DNA of 64,000 nucleotides from Candidatus Falkowbacteria bacterium (GTDB lineage: Bacteria > Patescibacteriota > Patescibacteriia > UBA11705), in the NCBI GenBank assembly GCA_003518055.1, contig DOZJ01000004.1:6073-70072 (forward strand), read 5' to 3'. Of the stretch, positions 13,394 to 35,292 are shown piece by piece. Position numbers and translations under genes: made by a program. The notes under the pieces were generated by a model. The model was given only the letters and a program-made list of their open reading frames with translations. It made no database searches and had not been told where the DNA came from. Position 1 is the first letter of the stretch. Each line of letters starts with the position of its first letter.

Positions 13394-14337
13394 AAATAAT
13401 TTTTAAACACCCAATCAGCCAATACTTTTGTATCTTGAAATCTATCAGTAATCGTATCACTATTCAAGGCCACGAACATCACCGATTTGTCTTCATATTT
13501 TATCTCAACAGCCAGACAATAACCGGCTTCAGGCAAAAATCCGGTTTTACCGCCGATCAATTCATATCCAAATTGTTCGCTGTTCAAAAAACTTTCAAGC
13601 AAAATATCCGTATTAACGATTCTTCTTTTTTTCTCGTTATTCAATATATCAAACGAATATTCAGACTGCAACACCGATTCTCTGATTTCATTATGCTGCA
13701 AAGCAGCGTAAACCATTTTGGCCACATCGGTGGCCGTCGACACATTGGCCGGATCAAGTCCGGTCGGATCAGCGAATTTCGTATTATACAGTTTCAATTG
13801 CTTGGCTTTATCATTCATCATTATTACGAAATCAGTCTCAGAAACCCCTAAACTTCTAACCATTGCCAGGATCGCGTTGTTATCCGAACTGATCAACGCC
13901 GCTTTCCACAAATGGAAAAAGGTCACTTCTTCTCCACGATACAAATGAGGATATGCCCCGCTGGTCTCATCTCCGGCCGTCATCACGACTGTTTTATTCC
14001 AATTCGGCCGCAAATCCAAGATCACCATAGCGGTCATCAATTTGGTAATGCTGGCAATCGGCTGCTTTAGCTGGGCTTGATTTTCAATCAACACCAAACC
14101 GGTATCCACATCAATCGCGACATATTTCTCCGCCGTAATCTCGACGCCGATATTTTGTTCATTGACTCGGATTGGGATGTCATCAGAGTATTGAATCTCA
14201 GGCGTCAAAAAAACCCGCTGCTCGTTTTCCACCGTATAAACCCCCGCTTGAGTACTGATTAAAATCAAACTTAATATGATTCTTAAAACTGGCATAATGC
14301 GTAAACTTAATCTACACCCCCGGCTCGTCTTTTGCAC
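13384..14337 (-). CDS. D-alanyl-D-alanine carboxypeptidase (PBP5/6-like S11 peptidase).
   Basis: SxxK SITK (ASITKLMTAMVILD); SxN SSDNNA; KTG GGKTGF; signal peptide. Confidence 0.85.
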   Translation of the reverse strand: MQKTSRGCRLSLRIMPVLRIILSLILISTQAGVYTVENEQRVFLTPEIQYSDDIPIRVNEQNIGVEITAEKYVAIDVDTGLVLIENQAQLKQPIASITKLMTAMVILDLRPNWNKTVVMTAGDETSGAYPHLYRGEEVTFFHLWKAALISSDNNAILAMVRSLGVSETDFVIMMNDKAKQLKLYNTKFADPTGLDPANVSTATDVAKMVYAALQHNEIRESVLQSEYSFDILNNEKKRRIVNTDILLESFLNSEQFGYELIGGKTGFLPEAGYCLAVEIKYEDKSVMFVALNSDTITDRFQDTKVLADWVFKNYLWK

Positions 14338-14869
14338 TCAAAAACTGCTCGAGATTCTCCACCTGATGCAGCTTATCAAAATCCGGTAACTCTTTAACTG
14401 ACTTTAGCCCCAGATATTTCAACAATTCCGGCGTCACCACATAAACCAATCCATTTTCACGTTCTGATTCCTCAATCAATCCTCGAATCAGCAAATTCCT
14501 CAGAATCAAACTGCAATTCACGCCCCGAATTTGCTCCAGCACCGGCTTGGTTATTGGCCCGCGATAAGCGATAATCGTTAATGTTTCAAGCGATGGCTGA
14601 GTCAACTCGCCGGTTCTCTCATCTTGAACCAATATTTTAACCAAATCGGCATTCGCCGCCGCTGTGACCAGTTGATATTGCCCGTTGCTTTCAATTAGAT
14701 TAATGCCGCTGTCTTCAACATTAAACTTTGCCTGCAAACCGGCCATCGCTTCTTCCACTAAATGTTTCTCCACCTTTATCCCTTGTTTATCAAAAAACTT
14801 CACCAGCCATCCGACCGTTATTGGTTTAACCGAGGCAAATAACAGACTCTCGATCTGAGATTTAAGCAT
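14312..14869 (-). CDS. scpB: Segregation and condensation protein B (ScpB).
   Basis: N-terminal IESLLFAS..P; two winged-helix repeats; typical length. Confidence 0.7.
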   Translation of the reverse strand: MLKSQIESLLFASVKPITVGWLVKFFDKQGIKVEKHLVEEAMAGLQAKFNVEDSGINLIESNGQYQLVTAAANADLVKILVQDERTGELTQPSLETLTIIAYRGPITKPVLEQIRGVNCSLILRNLLIRGLIEESERENGLVYVVTPELLKYLGLKSVKELPDFDKLHQVENLEQFLSAKDEPGV

Positions 14870-15117
14870 AAAAAAAATTATTTCCGTACTGGCAGTATAC
14901 TACAAATCCCCACAATTCTCAAGCCATACCATAACATATAGGTAGCTGCCTTTGTAAAAAGCATCCCGAAATAGCCTGGCAATGTTAAACTCGATTTGTA
15001 AAATCCAAGATCAATTAATTTTATAGCTTTCGTAGTATTTGCGGTATTCGTAGTATTTGCCTGCCTGCCGGAGCTCGTTCAACAAGAGCATAGGCAGGTA
15101 ACCATTCGTAAATTCGT

Positions 15118-15148
15118 AACATTAAAAAAGACCTGATTATTATCAGAT
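15118..15148 (-). terminator. Terminator after the ABC ATPase gene.
   Basis: On the minus strand, agatctgataataatcaggtct followed by a T6 run. Confidence 0.5.
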
Positions 15149-16063
15149 CTAAATTGACTCAACCACCTCAGCCGCCACCGCACCCTGCTCCTCTGTCAAG
15201 GTCATGAAACTATCCGGATGCGTCTGATTGAACGCTTTGACGCTCTGACAGAATTTGGGCTCAAAACTCTCATGTCGAATCCGATGAATCAAATCGCTGA
15301 AGGCCGGAGACTTCTTGACCTCAGTCGACTTGATGCTTCGACCCAGATCATAATCAGACACAATGCGCGCGCCATGCTTCAAGCCATGACGGCCATCGCT
15401 GTAATATTGACTGAAAGCCACCACCCGAGAGCCCAAAAAAACCGCTTCTTCCAAATCATGGGTCACAAAGAAAATAGTCATCCCCGTCTCTTCCCAGACT
15501 TCCAAAATAAACATCTGCAGATCTTCACGCGTATACGGATCAAGCGCACCATAGGGTTCGTCCATCATCAAGATTTCCGGCTTCATAATCAATGCCTGAG
15601 CAATTGCGACCCGCTGCTGCTGACCGCCGGACAATTGATGCGGTTTTTTCTTCGCGTCATCTTCAAGACCAACCTTCTTCAAATAATACATGGCTTCATC
15701 TCGACTCGTCTCCATGCTTCCAAGTAATTCTAGGCATGTTGCTGTAAAAAGCTTACCGATCATTACATTTTCCATTGCTGTCAGATGAGGAAACAAACTG
15801 TAGCGCTGAAACACGATCCCTCGCGTCACGTCCGGATGGTAAATTTCCCGTCCATCGATCAGCATTGTACCGCTGGTGTGCCGCTCCTGCCCCAAAATCA
15901 ACCTGAGCATCGTCGACTTGCCGCAGCCGGATGGTCCGACCACCGTCACAAATTCCCCGCGGGACACCTTGAAGTCAATATCATCTAGAACCACGTTAGC
16001 GCCATACGCCTTCACCATGTCGAGACAATAAATCACATGATTCTCTTCTCTGGCGGCGCTCAT
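15149..16063 (-). CDS. ABC transporter ATP-binding protein (nitrate/sulfonate/bicarbonate NitT/TauT family, SsuB/TauB-like).
   Basis: Walker A GPSGCGKST; signature LSGGQQQRVAIAQAL; Walker B ILMMDEP. Confidence 0.85.
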   Translation of the reverse strand: MSAAREENHVIYCLDMVKAYGANVVLDDIDFKVSRGEFVTVVGPSGCGKSTMLRLILGQERHTSGTMLIDGREIYHPDVTRGIVFQRYSLFPHLTAMENVMIGKLFTATCLELLGSMETSRDEAMYYLKKVGLEDDAKKKPHQLSGGQQQRVAIAQALIMKPEILMMDEPYGALDPYTREDLQMFILEVWEETGMTIFFVTHDLEEAVFLGSRVVAFSQYYSDGRHGLKHGARIVSDYDLGRSIKSTEVKKSPAFSDLIHRIRHESFEPKFCQSVKAFNQTHPDSFMTLTEEQGAVAAEVVESI

Positions 16064-16072
16064 ATTTCCCTC

Positions 16073-17020
16073 CTATCCGTTTTTGATATCGACATACCAG
16101 CGGTATTTCCAATCGAGAATTTTCTTTAGAATAAAATTCATCAAAAACCCGATAGACGTAATCCAAAAAACAATGGGAATAATCAGGCTCATGTTCAAAT
16201 ACCGCCGCGACAAGAAAATGCGGTAAGCCAAACCATTCTTTGAAGCAATAGCTTCAGCCGCAATTAGAAACAACCACGCCGGACTCAGATACACTCTAAT
16301 CATCTCGATGAAACGAGGCATCACCTGAGGAAAAATAATGCGATAAACAATCGCCCACGAACTGGCGCCAAGCGTCAGCGCTTTAACAATCTGCTCCCGA
16401 GGAATGTTCTCAACCGCGATCTTGAGATCTCGAGTCATCAAAAAGGTGATCCCGAGCACAATCAAAGAAATTTTTCCCAACTCTTCCACTCCAAGCCCGA
16501 TAAAAATAATCGGCAAAATGGCCAACGGTGGAATAATGGACACGAAGGTCACAAATGGCATCCAAGTCGATCTAACCCAGGGGTAAATTCCCATCGACAA
16601 ACCCCAAATCAAAGACAGCACCGACGCAATCGAGACACCGATCAGCAACCGCTTCAAACTGGCCAACGTGTCATCCACAAACAAATTCTTGTCTGTCCTC
16701 TTGTCAGTTTCCACCACATAAATCTTGACCTGCTCATACATCTGCGAAATCGTCGGCAGAATCTTGTCTCTTGGATTTTCCTCGTGCCGCTTATTCGAAA
16801 AGTGAATATATGTCCCGAGAAGCAACACAAATGGAACGATCGCCAACAAAACCTTCGCCACTCGACTGGGACAATAGTGCAAACTAAAAAAAGTTTTTAC
16901 TGTGTTCCAAATCCGGCTCAAAACATTCACTCCCACGCTCCAAATCCATTTCAACATCTGCATTTGGGCCTCCTTTTGGGGCATTTGCTGGTTTACGTTT
17001 TTGTTATCAAAGAACCGCAT
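16073..17020 (-). CDS. ABC transporter permease (SsuC/TauC-like).
   Basis: Six TM segments and an EAA-like loop; operon context with the ATPase and the binding protein. Confidence 0.75.
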   Translation of the reverse strand: MRFFDNKNVNQQMPQKEAQMQMLKWIWSVGVNVLSRIWNTVKTFFSLHYCPSRVAKVLLAIVPFVLLLGTYIHFSNKRHEENPRDKILPTISQMYEQVKIYVVETDKRTDKNLFVDDTLASLKRLLIGVSIASVLSLIWGLSMGIYPWVRSTWMPFVTFVSIIPPLAILPIIFIGLGVEELGKISLIVLGITFLMTRDLKIAVENIPREQIVKALTLGASSWAIVYRIIFPQVMPRFIEMIRVYLSPAWLFLIAAEAIASKNGLAYRIFLSRRYLNMSLIIPIVFWITSIGFLMNFILKKILDWKYRWYVDIKNG

Positions 17021-17202
17021 ATTTTACACAAAACAATCTCATTTGTCAAGTCGTCTCTCATTTTAGCCAAAATCCCCAACAACCGAGACAAGCTTGTTTG
17101 TAATTCCTTTTTTCTTCACGTCCCCAAACCTTACTCCGTAATATTCGTATTTTTTGTAAATTCGTAATAAAAAAACTCTAGTCTGTTAACTAGAGTCTAA
17201 TA

Positions 17203-18258
17203 CTAAAGCTTGCCGTCAGCGGCCATCTGCATATACTTGGTCGTGAAGCGCAGCTTCACGTTCCTCTTGTCTCCCATCACCGAACCATCCGGCAGCTCAA
17301 TCCCGACTTCATCCTTCGACTTCGCAGTCGGGCCGAACATTCCCTTATCGAAACAGAACGTCCGAACAAACTCCATGGTCTTGGCCAACGTCGCACTGGC
17401 CGTGAATTCAACCGCCGCCTTCGGTGTGTAGTACATGTACGTCGTCTTCAGCTGAGCCTCAAACTCCGCCAGCGTACCACCGGCCGTCTTGGCCATGAAA
17501 GTCAGAGCTTCCTTGGTAGGAGCGCCCTTACCCGACATCACCGCCATGGTCTCATACCAGGCTCCGGTCAGCGCCTTCTTGAGCTCTTCCGGCGCATCGG
17601 TCCTGACCACCAAGAGATCCAGAATCTCTCCGGGGATCTGTGCGCTTGTGAAAAGAACCTTCGCTCCGCGCTCCTGCCGAATCTTCATCACGATCGGGTT
17701 CCAAGTTACGACCGTTGTCTGCGGCGTTCGATTCGCGACGAACAAACCGGCAATTTCACTGTCACTCGTATTCACAAACGCTCCGAGATCAGCCTCGCTC
17801 ATACCGTTCATGGCGAGTGCCCGAGCTACCAGATAGTGACTGACACTGAGCTCAACACCGAAAATATCTCGGCCGCGCAGATCAGCCACGCTCGTCCCAC
17901 TGTAACTCACAATGGCATCATTGCCATCACTGTAATCACCGACGATCACCACCGTCGAGTCCTTGCCTCCTGATGCCGGAACCGTCAGCGCGTCCATGTT
18001 GGTCATGACACATGCATCATAATTTCCGGCCGTATACAGATTGATTGACTCCATGTAATCCATGGGAGGTGACAGCTCAATCGTAATGCCATACTTGTCG
18101 CCCCACTTCTTCAGCGTTCCCGCCTGTTCGGTCTGAGCCCACGGCTCCCAGCCCGTATAATGCGACCACGCCACCTTGTATGTCGTCTTCGCCATCACCG
18201 AACCAGCAAAAATCGTCGCCAGAATCATAGCCGTCAGAGTCAGCAGCATCTTTCTCAT
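17203..18258 (-). CDS. ABC substrate-binding protein (NMT1/SsuA/TauA family).
   Basis: Signal peptide; YKVAWSHYTGWEP...; GDYSDGNDAIV; operon context. Confidence 0.7.
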   Translation of the reverse strand: MRKMLLTLTAMILATIFAGSVMAKTTYKVAWSHYTGWEPWAQTEQAGTLKKWGDKYGITIELSPPMDYMESINLYTAGNYDACVMTNMDALTVPASGGKDSTVVIVGDYSDGNDAIVSYSGTSVADLRGRDIFGVELSVSHYLVARALAMNGMSEADLGAFVNTSDSEIAGLFVANRTPQTTVVTWNPIVMKIRQERGAKVLFTSAQIPGEILDLLVVRTDAPEELKKALTGAWYETMAVMSGKGAPTKEALTFMAKTAGGTLAEFEAQLKTTYMYYTPKAAVEFTASATLAKTMEFVRTFCFDKGMFGPTAKSKDEVGIELPDGSVMGDKRNVKLRFTTKYMQMAADGKL

Positions 18259-18296
18259 GGGCGGTTTCTCCTGTGGTTGTTGGTTGCCCGTTGAGA

Positions 18297-19169
18297 TTAG
18301 CGGTACTTCTCGGCCCGAGCCGCTATGGCTTGCAGGCCGGCGACTACTTCATCCATCGTCGAACCATTGGCGTATTTTTCACCTGTCTTCATTCTTCCAA
18401 TATCTACAGTCCGCATTTCCAGCTGAGTAATAATCTCTTCATTTGCGACCAGCAAATCTTTGATCTGGTCCAGATTATCAATTTTCAACTGCAGCCGATC
18501 GGACAAAGTTTTTACTTCTTTTTCTACTCTCGCGGATGGCGTTTGATTTCTTTGAAGCTGTTCAATCCGAGCTCTGAGAAACCTCTCATCGACCGATCGA
18601 ATCGCTTTGAGTGTCGTCACCACCGCGTTCAAATTATCCAGCACAGTAAAAGCCGCGTTTTCCGCTGCGGCAAAAAACCGCCCGAATGTCAGTTCCCCTG
18701 TCTGCAGCTTCTCCATCAAAAGATCGATTAAATCATTTACGGTCCGGGACACTTGGTCAAACTGCTGAATGCCGCGCTCGACATACTCATTGGCGCCGGC
18801 GATCTCGATGCAGTCTTCCAAATTTTCCCGAATCTGCTGCTTTTTCCACTCATTATATTCTTCTGCTCTCTTGCGAAGCTCCTGCAAATGTTTATAGGTT
18901 AATGCTTCGCCTCGAAAGAAATAATTCACGATCCAGCTGCCCAACCCAACACCGGAGCCGCCAATCGCGGCGTAGATGAAAATCGGCAACGGGCCGAGAA
19001 TCAAACATCCCAACGCTCCAATAATGCCCAAAGCCAATGGGTAGGTGGTCACCGGACTGGTAACCGTCTTTTTCAGCACCTCCGTGCTGATCGCCTTTTC
19101 AGTGTAATCACCAGCCTCAGGCTTGGCTCGCGCTGGAGGCAGTCTTTTGGGTTCCTTTCGCCACCCCAT
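18297..19169 (-). CDS. Membrane protein with two TM segments and a long coiled-coil (XpaC/TelA-like?).
   Basis: Two hydrophobic helices (LALGIIGALGCLILGPLPIFIYAAIGGSGVGLGSWIV) then a roughly 200-aa helical region. Confidence 0.35.
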   Translation of the reverse strand: MGWRKEPKRLPPARAKPEAGDYTEKAISTEVLKKTVTSPVTTYPLALGIIGALGCLILGPLPIFIYAAIGGSGVGLGSWIVNYFFRGEALTYKHLQELRKRAEEYNEWKKQQIRENLEDCIEIAGANEYVERGIQQFDQVSRTVNDLIDLLMEKLQTGELTFGRFFAAAENAAFTVLDNLNAVVTTLKAIRSVDERFLRARIEQLQRNQTPSARVEKEVKTLSDRLQLKIDNLDQIKDLLVANEEIITQLEMRTVDIGRMKTGEKYANGSTMDEVVAGLQAIAARAEKYR

Positions 19170-19183
19170 TTTCCCTCCTTGCG

Positions 19184-20743
19184 CTACAGGTCTTCTCGCA
19201 CCAAAACAATCTCAACTCGAGGTAGACCATACTGCCAATCTCGATATGATTGCCCAGCCTCCCGAATCAAAGGCTGCTCACCCCCAAGCCCATGAGCCAA
19301 ACACCGGTTAAAATCAACATTGTGAGTCACATTCAAATACTGAACCACTGACTCGGCTCGTTCCTGAGACAGCTGCTTGTTGGCCGTAGGGTCGCCTTCA
19401 TTGCTGGTATGCCCCACCACCTTGATCCGATACTGAGGAAAATGCTTCAGCTTCTGCATCAATTTGTCGAGCTCTTCTTTGCCCTCAGTACTCAGCTGGA
19501 ACGTGCCGCTTTGAAATACAATCGGCTGAATTTTCAACGTCCCAACCGGCTGGAGCTTGGCCCAATTTTCCGCTGCCAGAGGTTCAAATTTCATCCCCTG
19601 CGTCAACATCGCTTCCGCGACCGTCGTCGGGGTCTTAACCCCACTATACCCAGCGTATAGATCCTGCAACACTCCACTATAAATAATCTTATAAGGATCC
19701 TCATCCGGCAATGGACTGGCCTTAAAATCATCATTATCAATCAACACATTAACCGTTGATTCAATCACTTCAACCAACACTTCATTCGAATCCTCACCTG
19801 GAGCTGAAATTCCAAACCACTTGGTGCAATTCTGAGACATCGACGGCCAATCCACACCGTCAACCATATCCCTTACTCGCTTCCGATCTGATTTGGTTTC
19901 CGCTTCCAATTCCTTGAACCACTCTTCTTCATTATCCCGATACCACTTTAGCGCTCGGAAATAATTGGACAGGAACAATTTCACTTCCTTTGGATTCTTC
20001 TTGAGAAAATCTCGACTCACCACCAAAATATCAACCACATACCTTTCAGTTTCTTTGGTGCTGAAAATCTTTACCACTCCGGGCTGCTCTAGGGCGCGAG
20101 AAACATCAGGCTCCCAAAGCACCGCCACGTCCGCCTGACCGGAAAGCAGCTTTTGCAGCGCTTCTTCCGATCCCTTGGTTTCAATTCTCATGCCGGTCAA
20201 ACCAGATGGCAAAAGTTCATTCAAATTAAAGTGCGACTTGAGCGCCTTGAGCAGGTAATGACTCGGCGAATCCGGTGTAAAAGCTACGCGTACGCTCTTG
20301 CCGCGAAAATCATCCAGTGATTTTCCCGCTTTTTCCAAAGCTACGACCGCGTCGCCGCCATTTGATTCATCAATCACCGTCACCACCACTCCCGGATAAT
20401 TATGCTTGGCCGCGTTCAGAATATAAGAATCAACCGTCACGACCGCAAAATCAATCTCACCGTCATTCAGCTGTTTCATCCGAGCGTGATAATCAGCCGC
20501 GTCATCAATTACTTTAACTTCCCAGCCGGCCTGACGCATCCGCTTCTTAAATTCCTTGGATCTGAATGGAAAATATCCAACCCAGTTATCAAGGGCGATA
20601 GTAATCTTTCCTTCGACATCCTTGGCATCACTGGTTTCAACCACTTCCGCTTCATCCAACACCGGCTTGGTAAATTTCCACACCAACATCGCAACCACAG
20701 CAACCAACACCAGCAATCCAGCGCCGATCAGCTTCTTATTCAC
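19184..20743 (-). CDS. Fusion protein: N-terminal TM segment, an SsuA/NMT1-like solute-binding domain, and a C-terminal OmpA/MotB-like peptidoglycan-binding domain.
   Basis: The SBP region ITIALDNWVGYFPF...ESNGGDAVVALEKAGKSL is paralogous to 17203..18258. C-terminus IVFQSGTFQLS...VVGHTSNEGDP..N..LSQERA..V..YL (OmpA-like). Confidence 0.6.
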   Translation of the reverse strand: MNKKLIGAGLLVLVAVVAMLVWKFTKPVLDEAEVVETSDAKDVEGKITIALDNWVGYFPFRSKEFKKRMRQAGWEVKVIDDAADYHARMKQLNDGEIDFAVVTVDSYILNAAKHNYPGVVVTVIDESNGGDAVVALEKAGKSLDDFRGKSVRVAFTPDSPSHYLLKALKSHFNLNELLPSGLTGMRIETKGSEEALQKLLSGQADVAVLWEPDVSRALEQPGVVKIFSTKETERYVVDILVVSRDFLKKNPKEVKLFLSNYFRALKWYRDNEEEWFKELEAETKSDRKRVRDMVDGVDWPSMSQNCTKWFGISAPGEDSNEVLVEVIESTVNVLIDNDDFKASPLPDEDPYKIIYSGVLQDLYAGYSGVKTPTTVAEAMLTQGMKFEPLAAENWAKLQPVGTLKIQPIVFQSGTFQLSTEGKEELDKLMQKLKHFPQYRIKVVGHTSNEGDPTANKQLSQERAESVVQYLNVTHNVDFNRCLAHGLGGEQPLIREAGQSYRDWQYGLPRVEIVLVREDL

Positions 20744-20863
20744 ATTTACCTCCTGTGGTTTTGGGTCTCGGCTTTAGACTGAATAATGTAATTGGGACTG
20801 CCGACGAGTTTCACCTCGCCGGCAGCAGAACCGCCGCGCAATTTGGCTGCGATTCAAAAAAAC

Positions 20864-21700
20864 TTACTTCTCAAACTCCGTCACAACGAACTCCTCCGAT
20901 TCAGCCAACACGCCCTTCAGCGCTTCAGCCAATTCCTCGGGTGAATTCGCTTCCTTGTAAATAGTCGTATTCGGCTGATTCAACGTATGACGGTTTCCAA
21001 TGCAAAAACCAATCGTATAAATCACCACCGGCGACTCGGACGTAATCTGGGTTACCAAATGATGCAAAGAATATTCATCATTGGCGATACCATCAGTTAC
21101 CACGACAATCATATATTCACCGTAGCCAAGCTGTTTGACCGCTTCCTTGTTAATCGCCTGATAAGCCAAGTGCAGCGCTTCGGTCAGCGGTGTCCCACCT
21201 CCATCACGAGCACTATTGACCTCAACAATAAACTTTTCTCGATTATTCAACCCCAGAGATACCAGCTGCCGTGGATCAGAACGCTGATCGAACAGCACAA
21301 AACCCAAATTGGCATCAGCTGGTACACTCCGAGAAAAAGCCTCAATCGCGCGTTTGGCAACAGTCAACTTACTCTCAGAACTTGAACATCCTCTCTCAGC
21401 CATACTACCTGAACTATCAAGGATAACCAAGTAATTCTTCGTCGTCCAAAGTTCGCTCGGCGAGACTTCCCGATTATCAACCGGCGCGAACGGCCAAGCC
21501 GTTTCCCGCGTTGGATTCACCACCGGAGCCACCGGCTCAACCGGCTGCGGTTCCGCCCGATAAGGCGCCGAGGCCGGTGAAGGAGATGGACTCGAACTAT
21601 GCGGAGCGTAATACTCCTGCTTCTTCCTGCAACCAAGTACCGCCAAACCAATAACCACCATCGACCACAAAGTAATCTTGATTGTGTTATTCATCGTCAT
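20864..21700 (-). CDS. von Willebrand factor type A (VWA) domain lipoprotein.
   Basis: Lipobox LAVLGC; MIDAS motif LVILDSSGSM; GGGTPLTEAL; VVVTDG; Pro-rich linker. Confidence 0.75.
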   Translation of the reverse strand: MTMNNTIKITLWSMVVIGLAVLGCRKKQEYYAPHSSSPSPSPASAPYRAEPQPVEPVAPVVNPTRETAWPFAPVDNREVSPSELWTTKNYLVILDSSGSMAERGCSSSESKLTVAKRAIEAFSRSVPADANLGFVLFDQRSDPRQLVSLGLNNREKFIVEVNSARDGGGTPLTEALHLAYQAINKEAVKQLGYGEYMIVVVTDGIANDEYSLHHLVTQITSESPVVIYTIGFCIGNRHTLNQPNTTIYKEANSPEELAEALKGVLAESEEFVVTEFEK

Positions 21701-21712
21701 TGGTCACCTCCC

Positions 21713-23428
21713 TCAGAGCGGCTTAAAGGCTGAAGCCTCAGCCTCCATGGAGATTAGGCGAAAATCCACCCGCATATTCTCCCGCCACTGCTGCTCCGTC
21801 TTGGGAGCGCAGGGATCGGCTCCGCACATACCGCTCCGCGGCTGCTCGAAGCCATGACCAACAACCGTAAACTGCGTCGGATCAAGCGTGACACCCTTGG
21901 ACGCGGCGTACTGAATAATCGAATCGCGAACAGTCATTGATCGCTGAACTGTAAGGCTCTTGGCAACCTGCCGCACCTGAGTCAGAATGACCTGTGGATC
22001 TCCGGCCTTCTTCTTGCGCAGATACCCCATCGGATCAGCATTCCCTTCAATAACAATCACCGCGCCGCCCAAAACTGCCGCCTGTGCAATGATCTGATCG
22101 TATTCATCCTGATAACGAGCAGCGGAAAAATCAATCTGGTTGGGCTCAAAGAAAATCGAACTGGTCGGGAGAATCTGATCAGAATCCAAAGTTCCGGTCC
22201 GCAATCGCGTGTCCACGACCGCTGCCACCCGTTCCTCATCGAAGAGCGGCTTTTCAGCCAGAATCTGCAGCTTGGCGCCGGAGCCCATCAACGAGTAGTC
22301 CCATTCGGCATGAGTGAGTGCTACCGTCGCGGCCATCAGTCCGAGGTCGCGGAAAGCCGACTGAATGTCAGCCACCACTTCCCGGAAACTGCGCCGAGCA
22401 CCCGCGCCGGAAAAAAACCTCTGATTTTCACCAATGTCGGAGAAAGTGCAGTCAGCATACATCGCCCCCGCGTCTTCCACCGCCTTGTCACTTCCGAGAA
22501 TAATCTTGGCAAACGCCTTGACCAGATCTCGGTATTCCTGCTTGCCCGCCTTGACCACGGCCGCCATATCCTGGCCAGCCCTGAGCATGGTCTGAGCAAA
22601 CGCGTAAACAGTTTCCTTGTGCGCGTTGAAGTAATCGCTTCTAACCGCAAACACATCGAAAATCACATGGTCAGCACTCTTGGTCGACAACAGAATACGC
22701 GCGCCCTTGACCGAACCCTCGGCACCGGTTCCAACCGTGCCGTTGCTCGACAGAGCCAGCGCGTCCGGGATAATGGCAAACGCCACATCAGCCTGACCGC
22801 GCCTGAGCGCCTCAGCCGCCGTCTTGTCCGAAGCCGTAAGGTCATCAGTCCAAACCAGCTTGACATCAGAAACACTGAGATTCACTGACTTGAGAATGCG
22901 CCAGAGATAGTACATATGCGGACCATAGGCCTGCAGCGCCACGCGCTTGCCCTTGAAATCCGCCGCCGTCTTGATGCCTTCGGTCACGACCACAGCGTCA
23001 CCGCCGGTTGACCGAGTCAGAAGCAGCACTACCACGGGCTGCACCCGAGGATCGCTCTTCGTCGCCTCTGTCACCGCGTTGATCATGTCGAGCGTGCCGC
23101 GCAGATATGGCGTCTTGCCGGACATATAATCCTTGAACTGCTGTCGGAAATCGTCCTGCAGCGTGATATCAAAACACAGCCCCGCCTGAGCAAAAAGAGA
23201 GCCGGACTTGGTCCGCTTCTCATTGCCATTGGCAAAAACCGTTTCATATTCACCACCCCAGGTAATCACCGGCAGCTGCACACAATCACTTGGAGTCACC
23301 TCTCCGACTGACACATGAACATCCTGCCAAATCGGCTTGAGCTGCTGAGCTGAAACCTGATTCGACACCAACGTCACCGCCAAAATCGCCCACAGACACC
23401 ACCTTCTCATGTCTCCCTCCTGCCCCAC
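21713..23428 (-). CDS. Secreted SsuA/NMT1-like solute-binding domain fused to a C-terminal OmpA-like domain. Paralog of 19184..20743.
   Basis: Signal peptide; LLTRSTGGDAVVVTEGIKTAADFKGKRV parallels ESNGGDAVVALEKAGKSLDDFRGKSV; C-terminus IFFEPNQIDFS...VIEGNADPMG...VVGHGFEQP. Confidence 0.6.
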   Translation of the reverse strand: MGQEGDMRRWCLWAILAVTLVSNQVSAQQLKPIWQDVHVSVGEVTPSDCVQLPVITWGGEYETVFANGNEKRTKSGSLFAQAGLCFDITLQDDFRQQFKDYMSGKTPYLRGTLDMINAVTEATKSDPRVQPVVVLLLTRSTGGDAVVVTEGIKTAADFKGKRVALQAYGPHMYYLWRILKSVNLSVSDVKLVWTDDLTASDKTAAEALRRGQADVAFAIIPDALALSSNGTVGTGAEGSVKGARILLSTKSADHVIFDVFAVRSDYFNAHKETVYAFAQTMLRAGQDMAAVVKAGKQEYRDLVKAFAKIILGSDKAVEDAGAMYADCTFSDIGENQRFFSGAGARRSFREVVADIQSAFRDLGLMAATVALTHAEWDYSLMGSGAKLQILAEKPLFDEERVAAVVDTRLRTGTLDSDQILPTSSIFFEPNQIDFSAARYQDEYDQIIAQAAVLGGAVIVIEGNADPMGYLRKKKAGDPQVILTQVRQVAKSLTVQRSMTVRDSIIQYAASKGVTLDPTQFTVVGHGFEQPRSGMCGADPCAPKTEQQWRENMRVDFRLISMEAEASAFKPL

Positions 23429-23565
23429 CCGGGGCTTCTGTGGTGAAGGTCAAAACTCCAAAAATTTTTCTTGATCTATTTCCATTGTCAAGGCACAAAA
23501 TAACCTCTTAAATTACTACAAAAATATAAATTTGTCAACACCCCAACCTTTTTACCCTAAAAATA

Positions 23566-23593
23566 CAAAAAAAATGGTTCCAACACCATTTTT
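23566..23593 (-). terminator. Terminator after scpA, possibly bidirectional.
   Basis: Stem aaaatggt/accatttt with loop tccaac, flanked by A/T runs. Confidence 0.55.
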
Positions 23594-23600
23594 CTTCCCC

Positions 23601-23760
23601 TTGCTGCGAGGCGTACGTAGTAACGCCGTGGCAGCCTCCACCCGGTTTCAAGATTTAGCTCAAAGTAGTAACGACGCCTGCCCGCCTTTGGCGGGAAGCA
23701 GCCTCCAATCAGCTGCCAGACGCGGCAACCCTCAATAGCCGTCAAATGTAGCTGCCCCCA
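23601..23760. repeat. GC-rich structured segment between the scpA stop and its terminator. It contains internal imperfect direct repeats (gtagtaacgNcg x2, gcagcctcca x2) and several hairpins.
   Basis: Copies of the first repeat at 23617-23628 and 23665-23678. gcagcctcca at 23631-23640 and 23698-23707. Hairpin cccgcctttggcggg. Confidence 0.5.
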
Positions 23761-23831
23761 TTCAACGTTGCAGTTAACTTTTATCCCTCCCCCGAAAAAA
23801 CATTTTTTTCTTGTCTTTAATCACTTGCCGT

Positions 23832-24545
23832 TCACATCTTCTCAATATAAATTTCATCAAATAAATTTCCTTGTTTAACCGTCAAATGTTTTTGTTTCAC
23901 CAGCTCCAACATCGCCAAAAAGCTCATGATCACCTCGGTTCGCGATTCAGCCTGATCAAACAATTCCTTGAAACTCAAATTTTTTCTGGTTAAAAGCAAT
24001 TCTTTCAAATGCAAAATTTTCTGCTGCAGACTGACAGCCCGATCAATCATCTGCTTCGGCATTCTGACCAACGGATCCAATCTCTTTAACACCTGAATCA
24101 ATACTGATTTTAAATTATTGGTGGTAATATTTTCCGCCGGTGAAAAATCCACCTGCAAATCAATTTTGGTTTTTTCCCGCGAATACAAAAATTTTTCTTG
24201 TTTCAAAATCTGCTCCACCTTTTTCGTTGCTTCCAAAAATTCTTTATAAATCCTTAACTGCTTTTCCAGACTGTCAAAATCTTCTTCATCATCAATAACC
24301 GGTAATATCGCTTTTGATTTCAAATACAAAAGCCTGGCCGCGACCACCAAAAAATCTGACAACTCTTCAGGGTCTCGTTCACTCAATTTTTCCGTGTATC
24401 CGATAAACTGATCAGTCACCTGACTCAAAGACACTTCAGTTATTTCCAGTTTTTGCTGTTCGATTAACTGAAGCAGCAAATCCATCGGACCAGCGAATTT
24501 ATCAATTTTAATTTTATACATAATATATAAACACAAAAATTCCAA
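23832..24545 (-). CDS. scpA: Segregation and condensation protein A (ScpA).
   Basis: FAGPMDLLLQLIEQQKLEITEVSLSQVTDQFIGY, the canonical ScpA N-terminus. Confidence 0.8.
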   Translation of the reverse strand: MEFLCLYIMYKIKIDKFAGPMDLLLQLIEQQKLEITEVSLSQVTDQFIGYTEKLSERDPEELSDFLVVAARLLYLKSKAILPVIDDEEDFDSLEKQLRIYKEFLEATKKVEQILKQEKFLYSREKTKIDLQVDFSPAENITTNNLKSVLIQVLKRLDPLVRMPKQMIDRAVSLQQKILHLKELLLTRKNLSFKELFDQAESRTEVIMSFLAMLELVKQKHLTVKQGNLFDEIYIEKM

Positions 24546-28778: not shown

Positions 28779-30170
28779 TCAAACCCCTTTAATGTGTAAT
28801 TCATTTAAAACTTCTTTTGATATTTCGCTCGGGGCCCCCATCATCAAATCCTTAGCGTCACCAGTTTTAGGAAACGCAATTACTTCTCGGATATTCTTTT
28901 CATTTAAAAGTATCGCGATGAGACGGTCCAGCCCTAATGCGATTCCACCATGTGGAGGCGGGGCGAAGCTAAAAGCCTCAAGCAAATGCCCAAAACGTAA
29001 ACTAATCTCAGTTTCATTTAATCCTAATATTTGGAACACCTTCTTTTGTAAATCACGTTCAAATATTCTTAGACTTCCGCCACCAACTTCAAACCCATTT
29101 AAGACAAGATCATATGCCTCCGCCCGCACCTTTTCTGGTTTTTCTTCCATCATGTTAATATCATCATTTTTTGGTCGAGTAAATGGATGGTGCACCGAAA
29201 CCATTTTTTTCTCCGTATCGCTATATTCAAATAAAGGGAAATCGATAATCCAACCGAATGCCAATAAATTTGGATCTTGCTCTGTGCGCAAGTCCGGTTT
29301 ATCACTTTTATACAATTTTTGTGCTTCCATATATGTTAAGCGTGGAAATGGTATTTGCTGCATTCTTAAATTCGGGAAAAGCTCTTTCACCAAATCAATC
29401 ATGGCTTTTTCTATCAATTGCAAGATATCTTCTTGATCTATAAAAGACATTTCTAAGTCAAATTGGGTAAATTCCGGTTGACGATCACCACGCTGATCTT
29501 CATCACGAAAACAGCGAACAACCTGGTAATAACGTTCAATTCCAGCAACCATTAGCAACTGCTTAAACTGTTGTGGTGATTGTGGTAAAACATAAAAATT
29601 CCCTTTATGAATCCGAGAAGGGATAACGAATTCGCGCGCACCCTCTGGCGTTCCCTTGGTCAGATAAGGCGTCTCAATTTCCCAGAAACCTTGTTTCGAA
29701 AAATAATTGCGTAAAAACAAATTTATTTCTTGCCTCTTTTTCAAATTGTTTTTTACTCGTTCACTACGAATATCCAAATACCGATATTTCAATCGCATGC
29801 CCTCACTCAATTCAAGAGTATTCTGCTCAACTTCAAAAGGCAAAGCTTCAGACTCTGAAATAATAAAAATATTTAAGACTAAAATTTCAATTCGATCCAG
29901 CTGCACTACAAAACTCTTTTGTTTATCACCCCTTTTTTGTACAATTCCGTTTATTTCAACCAACCAACCCAATCGAACGTTGCTCAAGACATCAATTGAG
30001 TGTTGATCCAAATCATTACCTACGCCGACTACCTGAACTACACCCGAACGATCCCTAATGTCTAAAAAAACAATCTTGCCCATATTACGTCTAGCTGCAA
30101 CCCAACCCTTAATCCAAACCGTCTCCCCTATTTTGCTGACTGCTTCTTCTAAAAAAATGTATTTACTCAT
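28779..30170 (-). CDS. aspS: Aspartyl-tRNA synthetase (compact form of 463 aa).
   Basis: FRDEDQRGDRQPEFTQFDLEMSF (class IIb motif 2, bacterial AspRS type); OB-fold N-terminus; motif 3 GGGSLRI. Confidence 0.8.
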   Translation of the reverse strand: MSKYIFLEEAVSKIGETVWIKGWVAARRNMGKIVFLDIRDRSGVVQVVGVGNDLDQHSIDVLSNVRLGWLVEINGIVQKRGDKQKSFVVQLDRIEILVLNIFIISESEALPFEVEQNTLELSEGMRLKYRYLDIRSERVKNNLKKRQEINLFLRNYFSKQGFWEIETPYLTKGTPEGAREFVIPSRIHKGNFYVLPQSPQQFKQLLMVAGIERYYQVVRCFRDEDQRGDRQPEFTQFDLEMSFIDQEDILQLIEKAMIDLVKELFPNLRMQQIPFPRLTYMEAQKLYKSDKPDLRTEQDPNLLAFGWIIDFPLFEYSDTEKKMVSVHHPFTRPKNDDINMMEEKPEKVRAEAYDLVLNGFEVGGGSLRIFERDLQKKVFQILGLNETEISLRFGHLLEAFSFAPPPHGGIALGLDRLIAILLNEKNIREVIAFPKTGDAKDLMMGAPSEISKEVLNELHIKGV

Positions 30171-30178
30171 AAATGTTT

Positions 30179-31153
30179 TTAGTAATCCTTTATTTGTTTT
30201 ATTATATTCTCAACTATTTTAACATTTTGCATTGCCTCATATGCTTCCGGTTCAAATTTTTTTCCCTTCATAATTGCCCAATAAAAATCGTTTAACTCTT
30301 TATTTTCAGCATCTTCAGCAACATAATCAATCTCTTTACGATTGAGACCACTATGCTTCTGAATAAACAATCCATTAAAAGGATCCACAAACAAACTACC
30401 TTTTGTACCAAAAAAATTTATATAAAATGTTTCCTGTAAAACATAGCTGGAAACTAAATGAACCAAACAACCATTATCCAGCTCAAATATCGAAGAAAAC
30501 GTTTCTGGATTTTCTGTTGTTAAAAACTTCTTTTGACATAAAGTCATAAAACTTTTACCTTCAAACCCGCAAACGAATCTGATCGTATCTATAATATGAA
30601 TTCCCATTTGAATTAGCGGCCCGCCATTACATGAAGTCCGATAATAACGCCAATTATTTTTATCAATCCGATATCCAATTGGTCTTGACCTGTTTCCATC
30701 GATTAGAATCAAATCCCCAAGAACACCAGAATTAACCATCTTTTTAGCTTTTCTAAATATAGAATAACGACGTACATTATGCCCTACAGCCAAAAGAGTT
30801 TTATTCTTTCTGCAAGCCTTCAAAATTTCGGCGCATTCAGATGACGTATTAGCAAGCGGCTTTTCAACAAAAATTTTCTTCCCTGCTTTGGCCGCAGCTA
30901 CAATTTGTTCCTTATGATATTGATTTGGAGAAAAAATAAAAACAACCTTTATCTGACTATTTACCAAAATTTTCTGAAAATCGTCAACCCCCAAACAATT
31001 TAATTTCATTGCCGTAGAATGTGTTTTATTCTTATCTGAATCAAAAACAGTCAAAATATTAAATTTATTTGTTTTTTTTATTTTCTGAATCATTTGTTGC
31101 CCCCACCAACCTAACCCAATAACAGCACAACCTATCTTATTTTTTTCTTTCAT
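30179..31153 (-). CDS. Gfo/Idh/MocA-family NAD(P)-dependent sugar oxidoreductase.
   Basis: Rossmann N-terminus IGCAVIGLGWWGQQMI; family-typical EKPLA motif. Confidence 0.7.
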   Translation of the reverse strand: MKEKNKIGCAVIGLGWWGQQMIQKIKKTNKFNILTVFDSDKNKTHSTAMKLNCLGVDDFQKILVNSQIKVVFIFSPNQYHKEQIVAAAKAGKKIFVEKPLANTSSECAEILKACRKNKTLLAVGHNVRRYSIFRKAKKMVNSGVLGDLILIDGNRSRPIGYRIDKNNWRYYRTSCNGGPLIQMGIHIIDTIRFVCGFEGKSFMTLCQKKFLTTENPETFSSIFELDNGCLVHLVSSYVLQETFYINFFGTKGSLFVDPFNGLFIQKHSGLNRKEIDYVAEDAENKELNDFYWAIMKGKKFEPEAYEAMQNVKIVENIIKQIKDY

Positions 31154-31160
31154 ACTGCAA

Positions 31161-31940
31161 TTATATTCTATTTTCTAAATAATGTTGATATAAATTTACA
31201 GGAAGATTGAATTGCCCATCAGTATATTTAATAAGTTCTTTTTTGATTTTTGAAAAATTTTTTTCCCGTTTAATAACAGCATTTCGGTTAAATTTACAAA
31301 ATAACGCTAAAGATTGCAACTCTTCATTGTTCTTCCACGGAACCCAACTTAAACCCTTTAACAATCTTATTTTATTTTTAGAATCTGGGTATGGCTCAAT
31401 ATTTAACAAATAAACTAAATCTAAAATGGAATCAAAACAATATGATAAAAGCTGTTGTGCTGAAAAATAATCCTTTCGTAATAGAAATTTTGATAAGTGG
31501 GTTGTAGTTTTAAGCCCCCGCCAGTCGTCCGAAAATTCAAGAATAACACTAAGGGCTACAAATTTATTAATTATTTTCCCGACAATCTCTTTTTTCCAAT
31601 ATTCTTTCTTAATTGCTATGATTTGCTTCAAATTTTTCTGTCTATCATAGATAATTCTCTCATCCCAAAAAGCAAAAAACATTTCGCATGACCATTCATC
31701 CAGAAACTGCTTCAAAGTTATAATTCTTACATCAAACAACTTATTATCTTTATAGTACTTACCATGAGGTATGTTTTTAGTTGTTTTTTTTACTATCACG
31801 ACAATATCAATATCAGATAAAACATCAAAATCACAACGACCATAACTTCCAGTCAAAATAGCACCCAGGCAATTTGTATTACCTCTCAAATCAACGACAT
31901 AATCATTAAGATAAAAAGGTGACTTAAACATAATTTTCAA
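31161..31940 (-). CDS. Pol-beta-superfamily nucleotidyltransferase (ANT/LinB-like minimal NTase).
   Basis: GSYGRCDFDVLSDIDIVVIV, i.e. the GS-x9-13-[DE]h[DE]h motif. Confidence 0.55.
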   Translation of the reverse strand: MKIMFKSPFYLNDYVVDLRGNTNCLGAILTGSYGRCDFDVLSDIDIVVIVKKTTKNIPHGKYYKDNKLFDVRIITLKQFLDEWSCEMFFAFWDERIIYDRQKNLKQIIAIKKEYWKKEIVGKIINKFVALSVILEFSDDWRGLKTTTHLSKFLLRKDYFSAQQLLSYCFDSILDLVYLLNIEPYPDSKNKIRLLKGLSWVPWKNNEELQSLALFCKFNRNAVIKREKNFSKIKKELIKYTDGQFNLPVNLYQHYLENRI

Positions 31941-32937
31941 TACATTTTTGACTAATATCTGAAATTTTCCGACAGTTAGAAAATAACATAGCTTTTACTA
32001 GTTCATTTTGCATTTTCCTCAACAAAGAAATAAGGCCTGGTCTACCACCACCAACAACTGCATATACGGCCTCCCGGCCTATTAACACCCCATCCGCACC
32101 CAAGGCCAAACAAATGAAAGTTTCAAAACCATTTGAAATACCACCATCAACAAGAATTGTCATTTTCCCTTTGAACGTTTTAGCTATTTGCGATAAAACT
32201 GACAATGGAGCCGCTGCATAATCAAAAGACCGCCCTCCATGGTTTGAGACAACAACGCCATCGTAACCACAATCATGAGCGATTTGAGCATCATTTAAGC
32301 TCAAAATTCCTTTTAAAAACATAGGCCCATGATATAACAATCGTATTTCTTTTAACTCCTTTGCGTTTTTTCTAAAAACTTTTTTTTCATTTGATAGAAA
32401 CACACCACCAATACCATCCAAATCAATACCAATTACTTTAACATGAACTTTTTTCAATAACATTATACGTTTTTTTATTTCATCAAAACTTCTGGGTTTA
32501 CAAACAGCAATCCCATCGTTTTGGCTCAACAACTCTGGAACATCATAATTCTGTGTTGTATCAAAGCTATCTCCACACATTCCAATCATCCCACATTTAG
32601 AACAACTAGTAAGGATCATCTTTAAAAACACTTTTTCACTAATGAAACCATTAAGATTAGATTTAATTCCACTCATGGGAGCAACCATAATTGGCGCTGA
32701 CAAATCAAAACCAAATAAAAAACTTGTTGTGTCGGGGGTAAAATTATCCCCAATAATCTGTGATTTAATCTGGTAATTCTCAAACATTTTTTTATTACGC
32801 GTATACGAAACGCCACTGCCAGCCCATCCTAAACCTGGTAAACTCATCATGCCAGAACAATAATCATTACCTGCCCTCCCACTCAATCTTTCCATTTTTT
32901 TTCTACCATTTTTTATAATCTTATCAAAATTAACCAT
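31924..32937 (-). CDS. FMN-dependent alpha-hydroxy-acid dehydrogenase/oxidase family (TIM barrel).
   Basis: VVSNHGGRSFD active-site motif; ILVDGGISNG. Confidence 0.55.
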   Translation of the reverse strand: MVNFDKIIKNGRKKMERLSGRAGNDYCSGMMSLPGLGWAGSGVSYTRNKKMFENYQIKSQIIGDNFTPDTTSFLFGFDLSAPIMVAPMSGIKSNLNGFISEKVFLKMILTSCSKCGMIGMCGDSFDTTQNYDVPELLSQNDGIAVCKPRSFDEIKKRIMLLKKVHVKVIGIDLDGIGGVFLSNEKKVFRKNAKELKEIRLLYHGPMFLKGILSLNDAQIAHDCGYDGVVVSNHGGRSFDYAAAPLSVLSQIAKTFKGKMTILVDGGISNGFETFICLALGADGVLIGREAVYAVVGGGRPGLISLLRKMQNELVKAMLFSNCRKISDISQKCIENYV

Positions 32938-34084: not shown

Positions 34085-34088
34085 AATC

Positions 34089-35237: not shown

Positions 35238-35292
35238 AAAATAAATAATATTATACTCCTATAATCATTCATAAATAAAATCACAAAAATGA

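Follow-up and report, generated by a model that had tools for sequence, protein, structure and literature searches.

The minus strand of a 64,000-nucleotide stretch of contig DOZJ01000004.1 from a Candidatus Falkowbacteria bacterium (hereafter the window) carries seven co-directional genes between positions 15149 and 23428, which we designate, in order, A-B-C-D-F-G-H. This analysis concerns above all the first three. Genes A and C each encode a fusion of a substrate-binding protein (SBP) domain to an OmpA-like domain, and gene B, which lies between them, encodes a lipoprotein with a von Willebrand factor A (vWA) domain. We find that A-B-C is a real evolutionary unit and that it is the core of a seven- to eight-gene module rather than a free-standing trio. 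The module as a whole is real, widely conserved and mobile; it is made up of familiar parts and contains SBP fusions that are predicted to dock on the cell wall. The seven genes of the window are as follows.

21713..23428, minus strand: gene A, secreted SBP::OmpA-like fusion (571-aa open reading frame)
20864..21700, minus strand: gene B, vWA lipoprotein (278 aa)
19184..20743, minus strand: gene C, membrane-anchored SBP::OmpA fusion (519 aa)
18297..19169, minus strand: gene D, protein with a transmembrane (TM) hairpin and an all-helical domain (290 aa)
17203..18258, minus strand: gene F, free SBP of the TIGR03427 type (351 aa)
16073..17020, minus strand: gene G, ATP-binding cassette (ABC) permease of the NitT/TauT family, TauC/SsuC-like (315 aa)
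15149..16063, minus strand: gene H, ABC ATPase (304 aa; Pfam ABC_tran, 4.5e-35)

Two SBP::OmpA fusions and a vWA lipoprotein

The initial annotation read the 519-aa product of C as an NMT1/SsuA-type SBP joined to an OmpA domain, and profile searches bore this out. Pfam OmpA (PF00691) matched residues 410-497 at 2.5e-18 (66.7 bits against a cutoff of 27.2), and residues ~70-278 were matched by NMT1 (2.6e-10; 41 bits, cutoff 20.5), Phosphonate-bd (7.8e-10; 39 bits, cutoff 27) and NMT1_2 (2.3e-06). The protein is laid out as a TM helix (aa ~5-25), an SBP region (aa ~45-385) and the OmpA domain (aa ~405-519). A profile built from the C family matched dozens of solved OmpA-like domains in the PDB (5WTP at 1.4e-21) and also TauA (3.8e-4); the SBP fold of C was assessed by sequence profile only. 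An N-terminal hydrophobic anchor, judged by hydropathy and family conservation, is present in 77 of 77 C homologues, in agreement with the TM anchor originally assigned to one of the two fusions, and only ~4 residues of C would be cytoplasmic.

The larger fusion, A, consists of a signal peptide, a TauA/SsuA-like bilobed SBP (aa ~45-390) with a Gly-rich loop insertion (GTVGTGAEGSVKG), and a divergent OmpA-like domain (aa ~420-560). The signal peptide, which had also been predicted at the outset, is consistent with hydropathy and family conservation, with cleavage between VSA and QQ. The N-terminal SBP fold was recovered both by Pfam NMT1 (1.6e-08, 35.2 bits) and by an AlphaFold2 (AF2) model with a predicted local distance difference test score (pLDDT) of 86, for which the best Foldseek match was TauA (6SSY; 8.3e-14, TM-score (target) 0.73), followed by Thi5 and SsuA.

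The OmpA-like domain of A was harder to establish. Pfam PF00691 gave no match to the window's own A sequence, C-terminus included, but the domain, and with it the earlier claim, is upheld by orthologue profiles, by hhalign and by structure prediction. PF00691 matched the C-termini of 11 of 12 A orthologues at E<=0.1 (best 2.5e-6) and is precomputed on several A orthologues; the Desulfogranum japonicum orthologue scored 23.6 bits, under the gathering score of 27.2. A profile of A orthologues matched Acinetobacter baumannii Omp38/OmpA (3TD3) at 1.3e-4, with EGHSDP aligned with EGHTDN, and hhalign paired the domain with the OmpA domain of the C family (probability 78.7%, E 1.7e-5) in an alignment that superposes the GH(S/T)D and NxxLSxxRA motifs of the two. 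The domain is beta-alpha-beta-alpha-beta in the AF2 model and shows weak BFVD fold matches to OmpA-like proteins. Moreover, PHROG 25518, the family of the NMT1+OmpA proteins of phage G, aligned over residues 63-529 of A. On the strength of these profiles and the model we assign the last ~150 residues of A to a divergent domain of OmpA type.

The two OmpA-like domains differ in the residues that would contact the wall. D271 and R286 of A. baumannii OmpA, the residues that bind the diaminopimelate of peptidoglycan, both have counterparts in A (EGHSDP...NLSLxRA in the family, EGNADP...SLTVQRS in the window). In the C domain (window 19184-19531) the Arg is kept, but the canonical peptidoglycan-binding Asp of GHTD is Ser in the window; among the 72 motif-matched sequences of 78 C-family members scanned, this position is G in 42, S in 13, A in 6 and D in 11. 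Four residues after the lost Asp the C domain has an invariant Gly-Asp, often as Arg-Gly-Asp (RGD), which is a possible candidate for a ligand of the metal-ion-dependent adhesion site (MIDAS) of the neighboring vWA protein. The A domain has peculiarities of its own: an inserted basic helix of ~20 residues (YLRKKK) and, in an alignment of 31 sequences, an invariant Cys535/Cys540 pair and an acidic C-terminal tail in which E562, E564, F568 and L571 are invariant (pLDDT <51). The domains resemble those of Pal, MotB/PomB, YiaD and A. baumannii OmpA in fold and in the order of their motifs (GH(T/S)D...N..LS..RA), as seen in the PF00691 score of C and in the Asp/Arg pair of A. Unlike those anchors, they are fused to an SBP and not to a beta-barrel, a lipid anchor or a stator TM helix; in addition, A has the basic helix insertion and a Cys-x4-Cys loop, its window copy falling below Pfam detection, and the C family mostly lacks the canonical Asp.

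Between the fusions, B was correctly identified from the outset as a vWA lipoprotein with a MIDAS. It matches Pfam VWA_2 (PF13519; 2.5e-12, 47.8 bits, cutoff 27) and VWA (PF00092; 5.5e-11, 43.4 bits, cutoff 23.8), and its sequence reads as a complete MIDAS, DSSGS...T...D, with GGGTP and TDG. A lipobox (IGLAVLG-C-RKK, containing AVLGC) is followed by a Ser/Pro-rich linker and a WP motif. DxSxS is present in 73 of 74 B homologues, and DxSGS in 71. About half of the family members have a lipobox and others an N-terminal TM helix; all are tethered to the membrane in one of these ways.

The SBP domains of A and C had been described as clearly paralogous to each other and to the free SBP F, with a shared GGDAVV/GNDAIV motif. 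The paralogy is real, although distant: C and A are 29% identical (E 7e-13, over the SBP domain only), C and F 26% (2e-10), and A and F 22% (0.016). The shared motif shrinks, however, to S-x-G-[GN]-D-[AG], the only one common to the A, C and F families in a three-family alignment. Each family has its own invariant N-lobe motif and, within the N-lobe and near the hinge, a set of polar residues that never varies among its members; these family-specific residues argue for functional, distinct binding sites. By the criterion of equivalog cutoffs (NCBIfam TIGR01728, TIGR01729, PRK11480), neither A nor C is a taurine or sulfonate SBP: against SsuA_fam, A scores 45.7 bits and C 74 bits where 163.5 are needed, and C scores 42 against the TauA cutoff of 304. 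What A and C have in common with TauA/SsuA/NrtA-type SBPs (PF09084) is the type-II bilobed fold, NMT1 scores above cutoff (as in F) and a NitT/TauT-type permease and ATPase in the same operon. They depart from them in ending in an OmpA-like domain, in the TM anchor of C and the Gly-rich insertion of A, in falling below the equivalog cutoffs, and in having a separate canonical SBP, F, alongside.

Might A, B and C simply form a bridge from membrane to peptidoglycan that works without ligand, in the manner of Pal, YiaD and MotB, with the SBP fold as a rigid spacer or a protein-interaction module? The layout of C, with an N-terminal TM helix and a C-terminal OmpA domain, is like that of MotB and YiaD, B is tethered to the membrane via a long flexible linker, and the basic inserted helix of A (LRKKK) together with a disulfide-type Cys pair is typical of an extracytoplasmic structural protein. 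We nonetheless regard a purely structural role as improbable. At ~50% overall identity, the SBP domains of A and C still keep many polar residues unchanged from phylum to phylum, which fits a binding site better than a spacer, and in two types of module that differ greatly the fusions regularly occur with an ABC permease and ATPase (see below).

A conserved module with an importer, protein D and TelA

Relatives of C were found in at least 175 species-level genomes, a lower bound obtained by a pattern scan with one genome per species. For synteny we used 80 of these species-level loci, onto which the seven proteins of the window and the TelA protein of D. japonicum were mapped. A and C have hundreds of homologues each, at ~45-58% identity and of near-constant length. 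The co-occurrence of SBP-OmpA fusions with a vWA neighbor in other genomes, proposed as a check on the initial annotation, was borne out: A-B lies directly upstream of C in 69 of 70 evaluable loci. D follows C in 69 of 75, TelA is present in 53 of 66, the free SBP F in 31 of 43, and permease G with ATPase H in 30 of 43. The commonest order is A-B-C-D-TelA-F-G-H (19 loci); the order of the window, A-B-C-D-F-G-H, is found in three loci with enough flank on both sides, and TelA-less modules number at least seven overall. A-B-C stands alone in four loci that can be judged by their flanks (L010, L036, L047 and L049 in our numbering of loci); a fifth, L016, appears to be of this kind, but its flank is short. 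The three genes were thus rightly singled out as a unit, but the unit is normally larger and includes D, TelA and the importer. As for the suggestion that the system was undescribed, no paper in the literature searched describes this gene set (a 2012 comparative-genomics survey of Ter/TelA lay outside that search), but automated annotation already has a name for the fusion architecture, [quoted passage not shown]

Most of the hosts belong to the Desulfobacterota, Electrothrix, Electronema, Desulfosarcina and Desulfomonile among them. The module is also found in sulfur-oxidizing and other Gammaproteobacteria, Betaproteobacteria, Verrucomicrobia, Elusimicrobia, Entotheonella and seven lineages of the candidate phyla radiation (CPR). 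A classical AAA ATPase (PF00004; Mpa/CDC48-like) lies beside or inside the module in 14 species-level loci (among them L031, L050, L053, L055, L032, L034, L038, L001, L005, L037 and L051), and in Verrucomicrobia and at three CPR loci it is part of the operon; no such gene accompanies the module in the window. At 15 loci (including L002/L028, L005, L008, L030, L033, L045, L046, L048, L052 and L061) the module directly adjoins a radical-SAM gene that is RaSEA-like (TIGR01210, 115 bits, below cutoff), and in Electrothrix queC is also found near the module with the RaSEA-like gene.

Among the importer genes, G matches Pfam BPD_transp_1 (4.1e-19) and NCBIfam TauC (1.3e-24) and SsuC (4.8e-18), the last two under their cutoffs. 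F matches NCBIfam TIGR03427, "putative urea ABC transporter substrate-binding protein," at 2.7e-137 (457.3 bits, cutoff 333.9), with Pfam NMT1 and Phosphonate-bd matches of 23 and 29.5 bits. F passes the score cutoff of these "urea carboxylase-associated" SBPs but is without their defining neighborhood: no urea carboxylase or allophanate hydrolase was found near F in the window (no open reading frame exceeds 963 aa, and no carboxylase is among the scanned neighbors), and none recurs in the flanks of the 80 loci or in the eight-gene modules. We therefore rejected a urea or guanidine carboxylase context for F. F has a cleavable-looking signal peptide without a lipobox, although its CPR host is presumably monoderm.

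Protein D consists of a Gly-rich TM hairpin (aa ~43-83, by hydropathy) and an all-helical domain that is probably cytoplasmic; the AF2 model is all-helical, with a pLDDT of 69.6. Its family comprises 351 cluster representatives at E<1e-30, all of 260-300 aa and none fused to anything else, and is specific to the module. No relatives of D were found in Pfam, NCBIfam or the PDB, and D has no detectable similarity to TelA, XpaC, PspA or solved structures. TelA itself (PF05816, 241 bits in the orthologous module of D. japonicum) is not found by tblastn anywhere in the window, where D and F are only 38 bp apart. In most modules the TelA gene directly follows this small TM and helical protein, recalling the xpaC-telA arrangement. 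The resemblance goes only so far: the window is without TelA, D is not detectably related to TelA or XpaC, and known telA loci, unlike the module, have no link to SBP::OmpA fusions or vWA lipoproteins.

The constancy of D and TelA raises the principal alternative to a role in import, namely an envelope sensor or stress module. In such a scheme the SBP folds of A and C would sense a cue borne by the wall or periplasm, be it a toxic anion, a fragment of the wall or damage. The signal would travel via the TM helix of C to the D hairpin and on to TelA, which would protect or remodel the membrane, and the ABC transporter would be an accompanying effector that clears the compound or takes it up. telA contributes to nisin tolerance in Listeria. 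In Enterococcus faecium, xpaC-telA is reported to be up-regulated with daptomycin resistance (PMC6811118). D (69/75) and TelA (53/66) track A-B-C more faithfully than F-G-H (~30/43), and A-B-C-D-TelA occurs without the importer; C, with its few cytoplasmic residues, would need a partner such as D to signal; and the classical AAA ATPase joins the module in its 14 loci. Yet the window and at least seven other loci are without TelA but keep everything else, and D bears no detectable likeness to TelA, XpaC, PspA or any solved structure. Nor do the flanks of the loci show a conserved kinase, sigma/anti-sigma pair or transcription factor beside the module. Furthermore, the relatives of the phage G type consist of the fusion, a permease, an ATPase and two small proteins only. 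On balance we consider a sensing role unlikely, though it deserves to be kept in view.

Insertion between scpA and scpB and carriage by phages and plasmids

The genes scpA and scpB are normally adjacent. In the window they are split by the 9-kb module, which occupies an island (14870-23831) with a GC content of 0.497 as compared with 0.424 for the rest of the window. The boundaries of the island and the candidate expression signals within it are listed below; the signals were identified by consensus scan only.

23832..24545, minus strand: scpA, upstream island boundary (Pfam SMC_ScpA, 3.9e-22)
23464..23491, minus strand: promoter-like site 5' of gene A (TTGACA-16 nt-AAAAAT)
17021..17198, minus strand: F-G gap, with a hairpin (17198-17173) and a promoter-like site (17049-17021)
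15129..15150, minus strand: terminator-like hairpin directly 3' of the H stop codon, at the 3' end of the module
14312..14869, minus strand: scpB, downstream island boundary (Pfam SMC_ScpB, 2e-40)

The junction between scpA and A is present in three independent groundwater assemblies, and on this ground an assembly chimera was rejected. The C and A proteins are 100% identical to proteins from a Candidatus Falkowbacteria metagenome-assembled genome. Neither scpA nor scpB lies beside the module in any other locus, and no convincing direct or inverted repeats were found at the ends of the island. The TelA-less module of the window was horizontally acquired and inserted between scpA and scpB. In a neighbor-joining tree of A and C the CPR copies are polyphyletic: of their three groups, one clusters with Verrucomicrobia and another is nested within Desulfobacterota, a pattern that implies repeated transfer. 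Because the nearest CPR relatives of the window's copy (L004, L014 and L027) still carry TelA, its loss in the window lineage is recent.

Within the island, most intergenic gaps are 9-38 bp, the exceptions being B-C (120 bp) and F-G (182 bp). The promoter-like site in the F-G gap (TTGACA, 17 nt, TAAAAT) has 11 of 12 consensus matches, and together with the preceding hairpin it could uncouple expression of the SBP from that of the membrane components. The open reading frame of A opens at a GTG, but an ATG at 23410 (Met7) has AGGAGG 6 nt upstream, and the NCBI model of A, of 565 aa, begins at this Met7. The true start of A is probably the ATG at 23410, giving a protein of 565 aa. The 400-nt leader 5' of A was considered as a possible riboswitch or small RNA, a candidate that we rejected (nothing meaningful in Rfam, fold z-score -1.7). 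Following scpA is a GC-rich, structured-looking intergenic stretch (23560-23800) that ends in a terminator-like hairpin. Elsewhere in the window, a low-GC block (28779-36588; 0.31-0.36) holds genes for an FMN-dependent dehydrogenase, a class-III aminotransferase and a UDP-GlcNAc 2-epimerase, and is bordered by paralogous genes for class-II (Asp/Asn/Lys-type) aminoacyl-tRNA synthetases (28779-30170 and 35293-36588).

The module also travels on plasmids and phages. Vibrio megaplasmids carry the same eight genes under generic NCBI names, and in PLSDB full-length A homologues occur only on these megaplasmids, so that carriage by IncC-type plasmids was rejected. A 595-kb "uncultured phage" (LR756511.1; L089, 9150-17712) has A, B, C, a D-like gene, a coiled-coil gene, F, G and H in that order, and three further IMG/VR contigs share this arrangement (our labels for giant-phage loci are L089, L091 and L093-L152).

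A second, simpler and quite different type of module is found in Bacillus phage G (L091, 3971-11056). Besides a permease (gp243) and an ATPase (gp245), it comprises the small proteins gp246 and gp247, the latter with a TM segment and a coiled coil, and two adjacent NMT1+OmpA fusions (gp249 and gp250). The gp249 family is present in 57 IMG/VR contigs, viral by IMG/VR listing alone. In 54 of the 57 both permease and ATPase lie immediately upstream, in 51 all five genes are present in the order permease-ATPase-gp246-gp247-gp249, and in none is there a separate SBP. PHROG 25518, which contains gp249 and gp250 and which PHROGs lists without function, matches both window fusions end to end. Phage G is therefore like the window in having the fusion, in two side-by-side paralogues, with a NitT/TauT-like permease and an ATPase next to them. 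It is unlike the window in the low identity of its fusions to those of the window (only 23-25%), in its Gram-positive host, and in having gp246 and gp247 instead of a vWA protein, the D family, TelA and a free SBP. We also considered, from a likeness apparent by eye, whether the gp247 family and the 277-aa coiled-coil protein of the huge phage are PspA-like, and rejected this (no Pfam match, and no PDB profile match below E 0.26).

Could the module serve the mobile elements that carry it, by changing the envelope of the host so that it withstands superinfecting phages, colicins or toxic compounds? It is found on Bacillus phage G, huge phages, IMG/VR contigs and Vibrio megaplasmids, and in the window as an island, and such a function would match the phage and colicin resistance that has historically been credited to ter/TelA loci. 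TelA, TerY-like vWA proteins and AAA ATPases are, moreover, reportedly recurrent in conflict systems. On the other hand, PADLOC-DB returned only a generic MotB/ZorB match on the OmpA domain of C (7.6e-10), a weak LeoBC match for D (6.7e-4) and nothing for A, B or F, so that a known anti-phage defense system was rejected. No nuclease, toxin or other effector is conserved in the neighborhood of the module in the flanks of the loci. Carriage by phages would fit an auxiliary uptake gene equally well, as with cyanophage pstS. We judge exclusion or defense the least probable of the roles considered.

A possible role in ligand capture at the cell wall

The reading that we tentatively prefer, with a confidence that falls somewhat short of even, is that the fusions serve a mobile ABC importer as receptors docked on the wall and that the vWA protein, D and TelA are accessory parts for tethering or membrane stress. 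The three genes would thus be the core of a horizontally mobile envelope module of seven to eight genes built around an ABC importer of the NitT/TauT family. A (secreted) and C (TM-anchored) would be TauA/SsuA-type ligand-binding proteins whose OmpA-like domains dock non-covalently on peptidoglycan, so that their ligand would be captured in the zone of the wall directly above the membrane. From there, we infer, it would be passed to the permease/ATPase pair G-H, either directly or via the free SBP F. B, itself tethered to the membrane, probably keeps soluble A there as its intact MIDAS coordinates a conserved acidic residue, and the best candidate for the contact would be the invariant, disordered acidic C-terminal tail of A. 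Meanwhile, D would be the membrane partner of cytoplasmic TelA in most versions of the module and probably links it to a membrane-stress or protection function.

What supports the link to the importer is that two types of module, unlike as they are, both regularly pair the fusions with a permease and ATPase of the NitT/TauT type. The initial annotation had held that the fusions are not the transporter's own SBP and had taken this to suggest capture, tethering or sensing rather than simple import. This is weakened by the phage G type, in which the fusion is the only SBP beside the permease and ATPase and, for that reason, plausibly could serve the transporter directly; "capture/tethering or sensing rather than import" is accordingly a choice and not a conclusion. 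Tethering of SBPs at the surface, and carriage of uptake parts by mobile elements, are known from monoderm tethered SBPs and cyanophage PstS. Those SBPs are held by lipid or by fusion to the permease, however, and not by peptidoglycan through an OmpA-like domain, and tethering of the A/C type evolved mainly in diderm lineages.

Several observations weigh against the importer reading. A protein fixed at both ends, by a TM helix and by the wall, is an awkward shuttle for the cycle in which an SBP docks on its permease, and the full module already has a dedicated SBP in the free protein F, which speaks for a further function of A and C. Whether C is anchored to the wall is itself uncertain, because most members of its family have lost the canonical peptidoglycan-binding Asp. 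To our knowledge, vWA proteins, D and TelA have no known role in ABC import. Finally, 12 of the 43 loci with at least 6 kb on both sides have no F, G or H nearby (A-B-C-D-TelA without a transporter is found, for example, on the chromosomes of cable bacteria), and the core can therefore exist without an adjacent importer.

A bolder proposal can also be made, to which we assign a rather low probability. A-B-C with D and TelA might be a self-contained, undescribed machine that spreads on phages, megaplasmids and islands, in which two peptidoglycan-docked receptors of SBP fold and a MIDAS adaptor would couple ligand capture to D/TelA and to the importer. Giant phages and CPR bacteria would then acquire the module to reprogram uptake or tolerance at the host envelope. 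If this were so, the module would represent a new class of wall-docked receptor system and not an ordinary transporter with extra SBPs.

Because it is present on a cultured phage, on Vibrio plasmids and in cultured Desulfobacterota, the module is open to experiment, its tractable carriers being Bacillus phage G, Vibrio pSEA1 and pIFO15640, Desulfosarcina variabilis and D. japonicum. Its strict gene order holds across at least eight phyla. CPR bacteria have tiny genomes and depend on uptake, and a 9-kb island for uptake or envelope function between scpA and scpB is a clear case of the recent horizontal gain of an envelope function in such an organism. If, as we tentatively propose, the fusions are wall-docked receptors, solute capture would be positioned in the cell wall itself, outside the textbook model of the ABC importer, and the module would open a functional route to TelA, a protein that has for decades lacked a clear mechanism.

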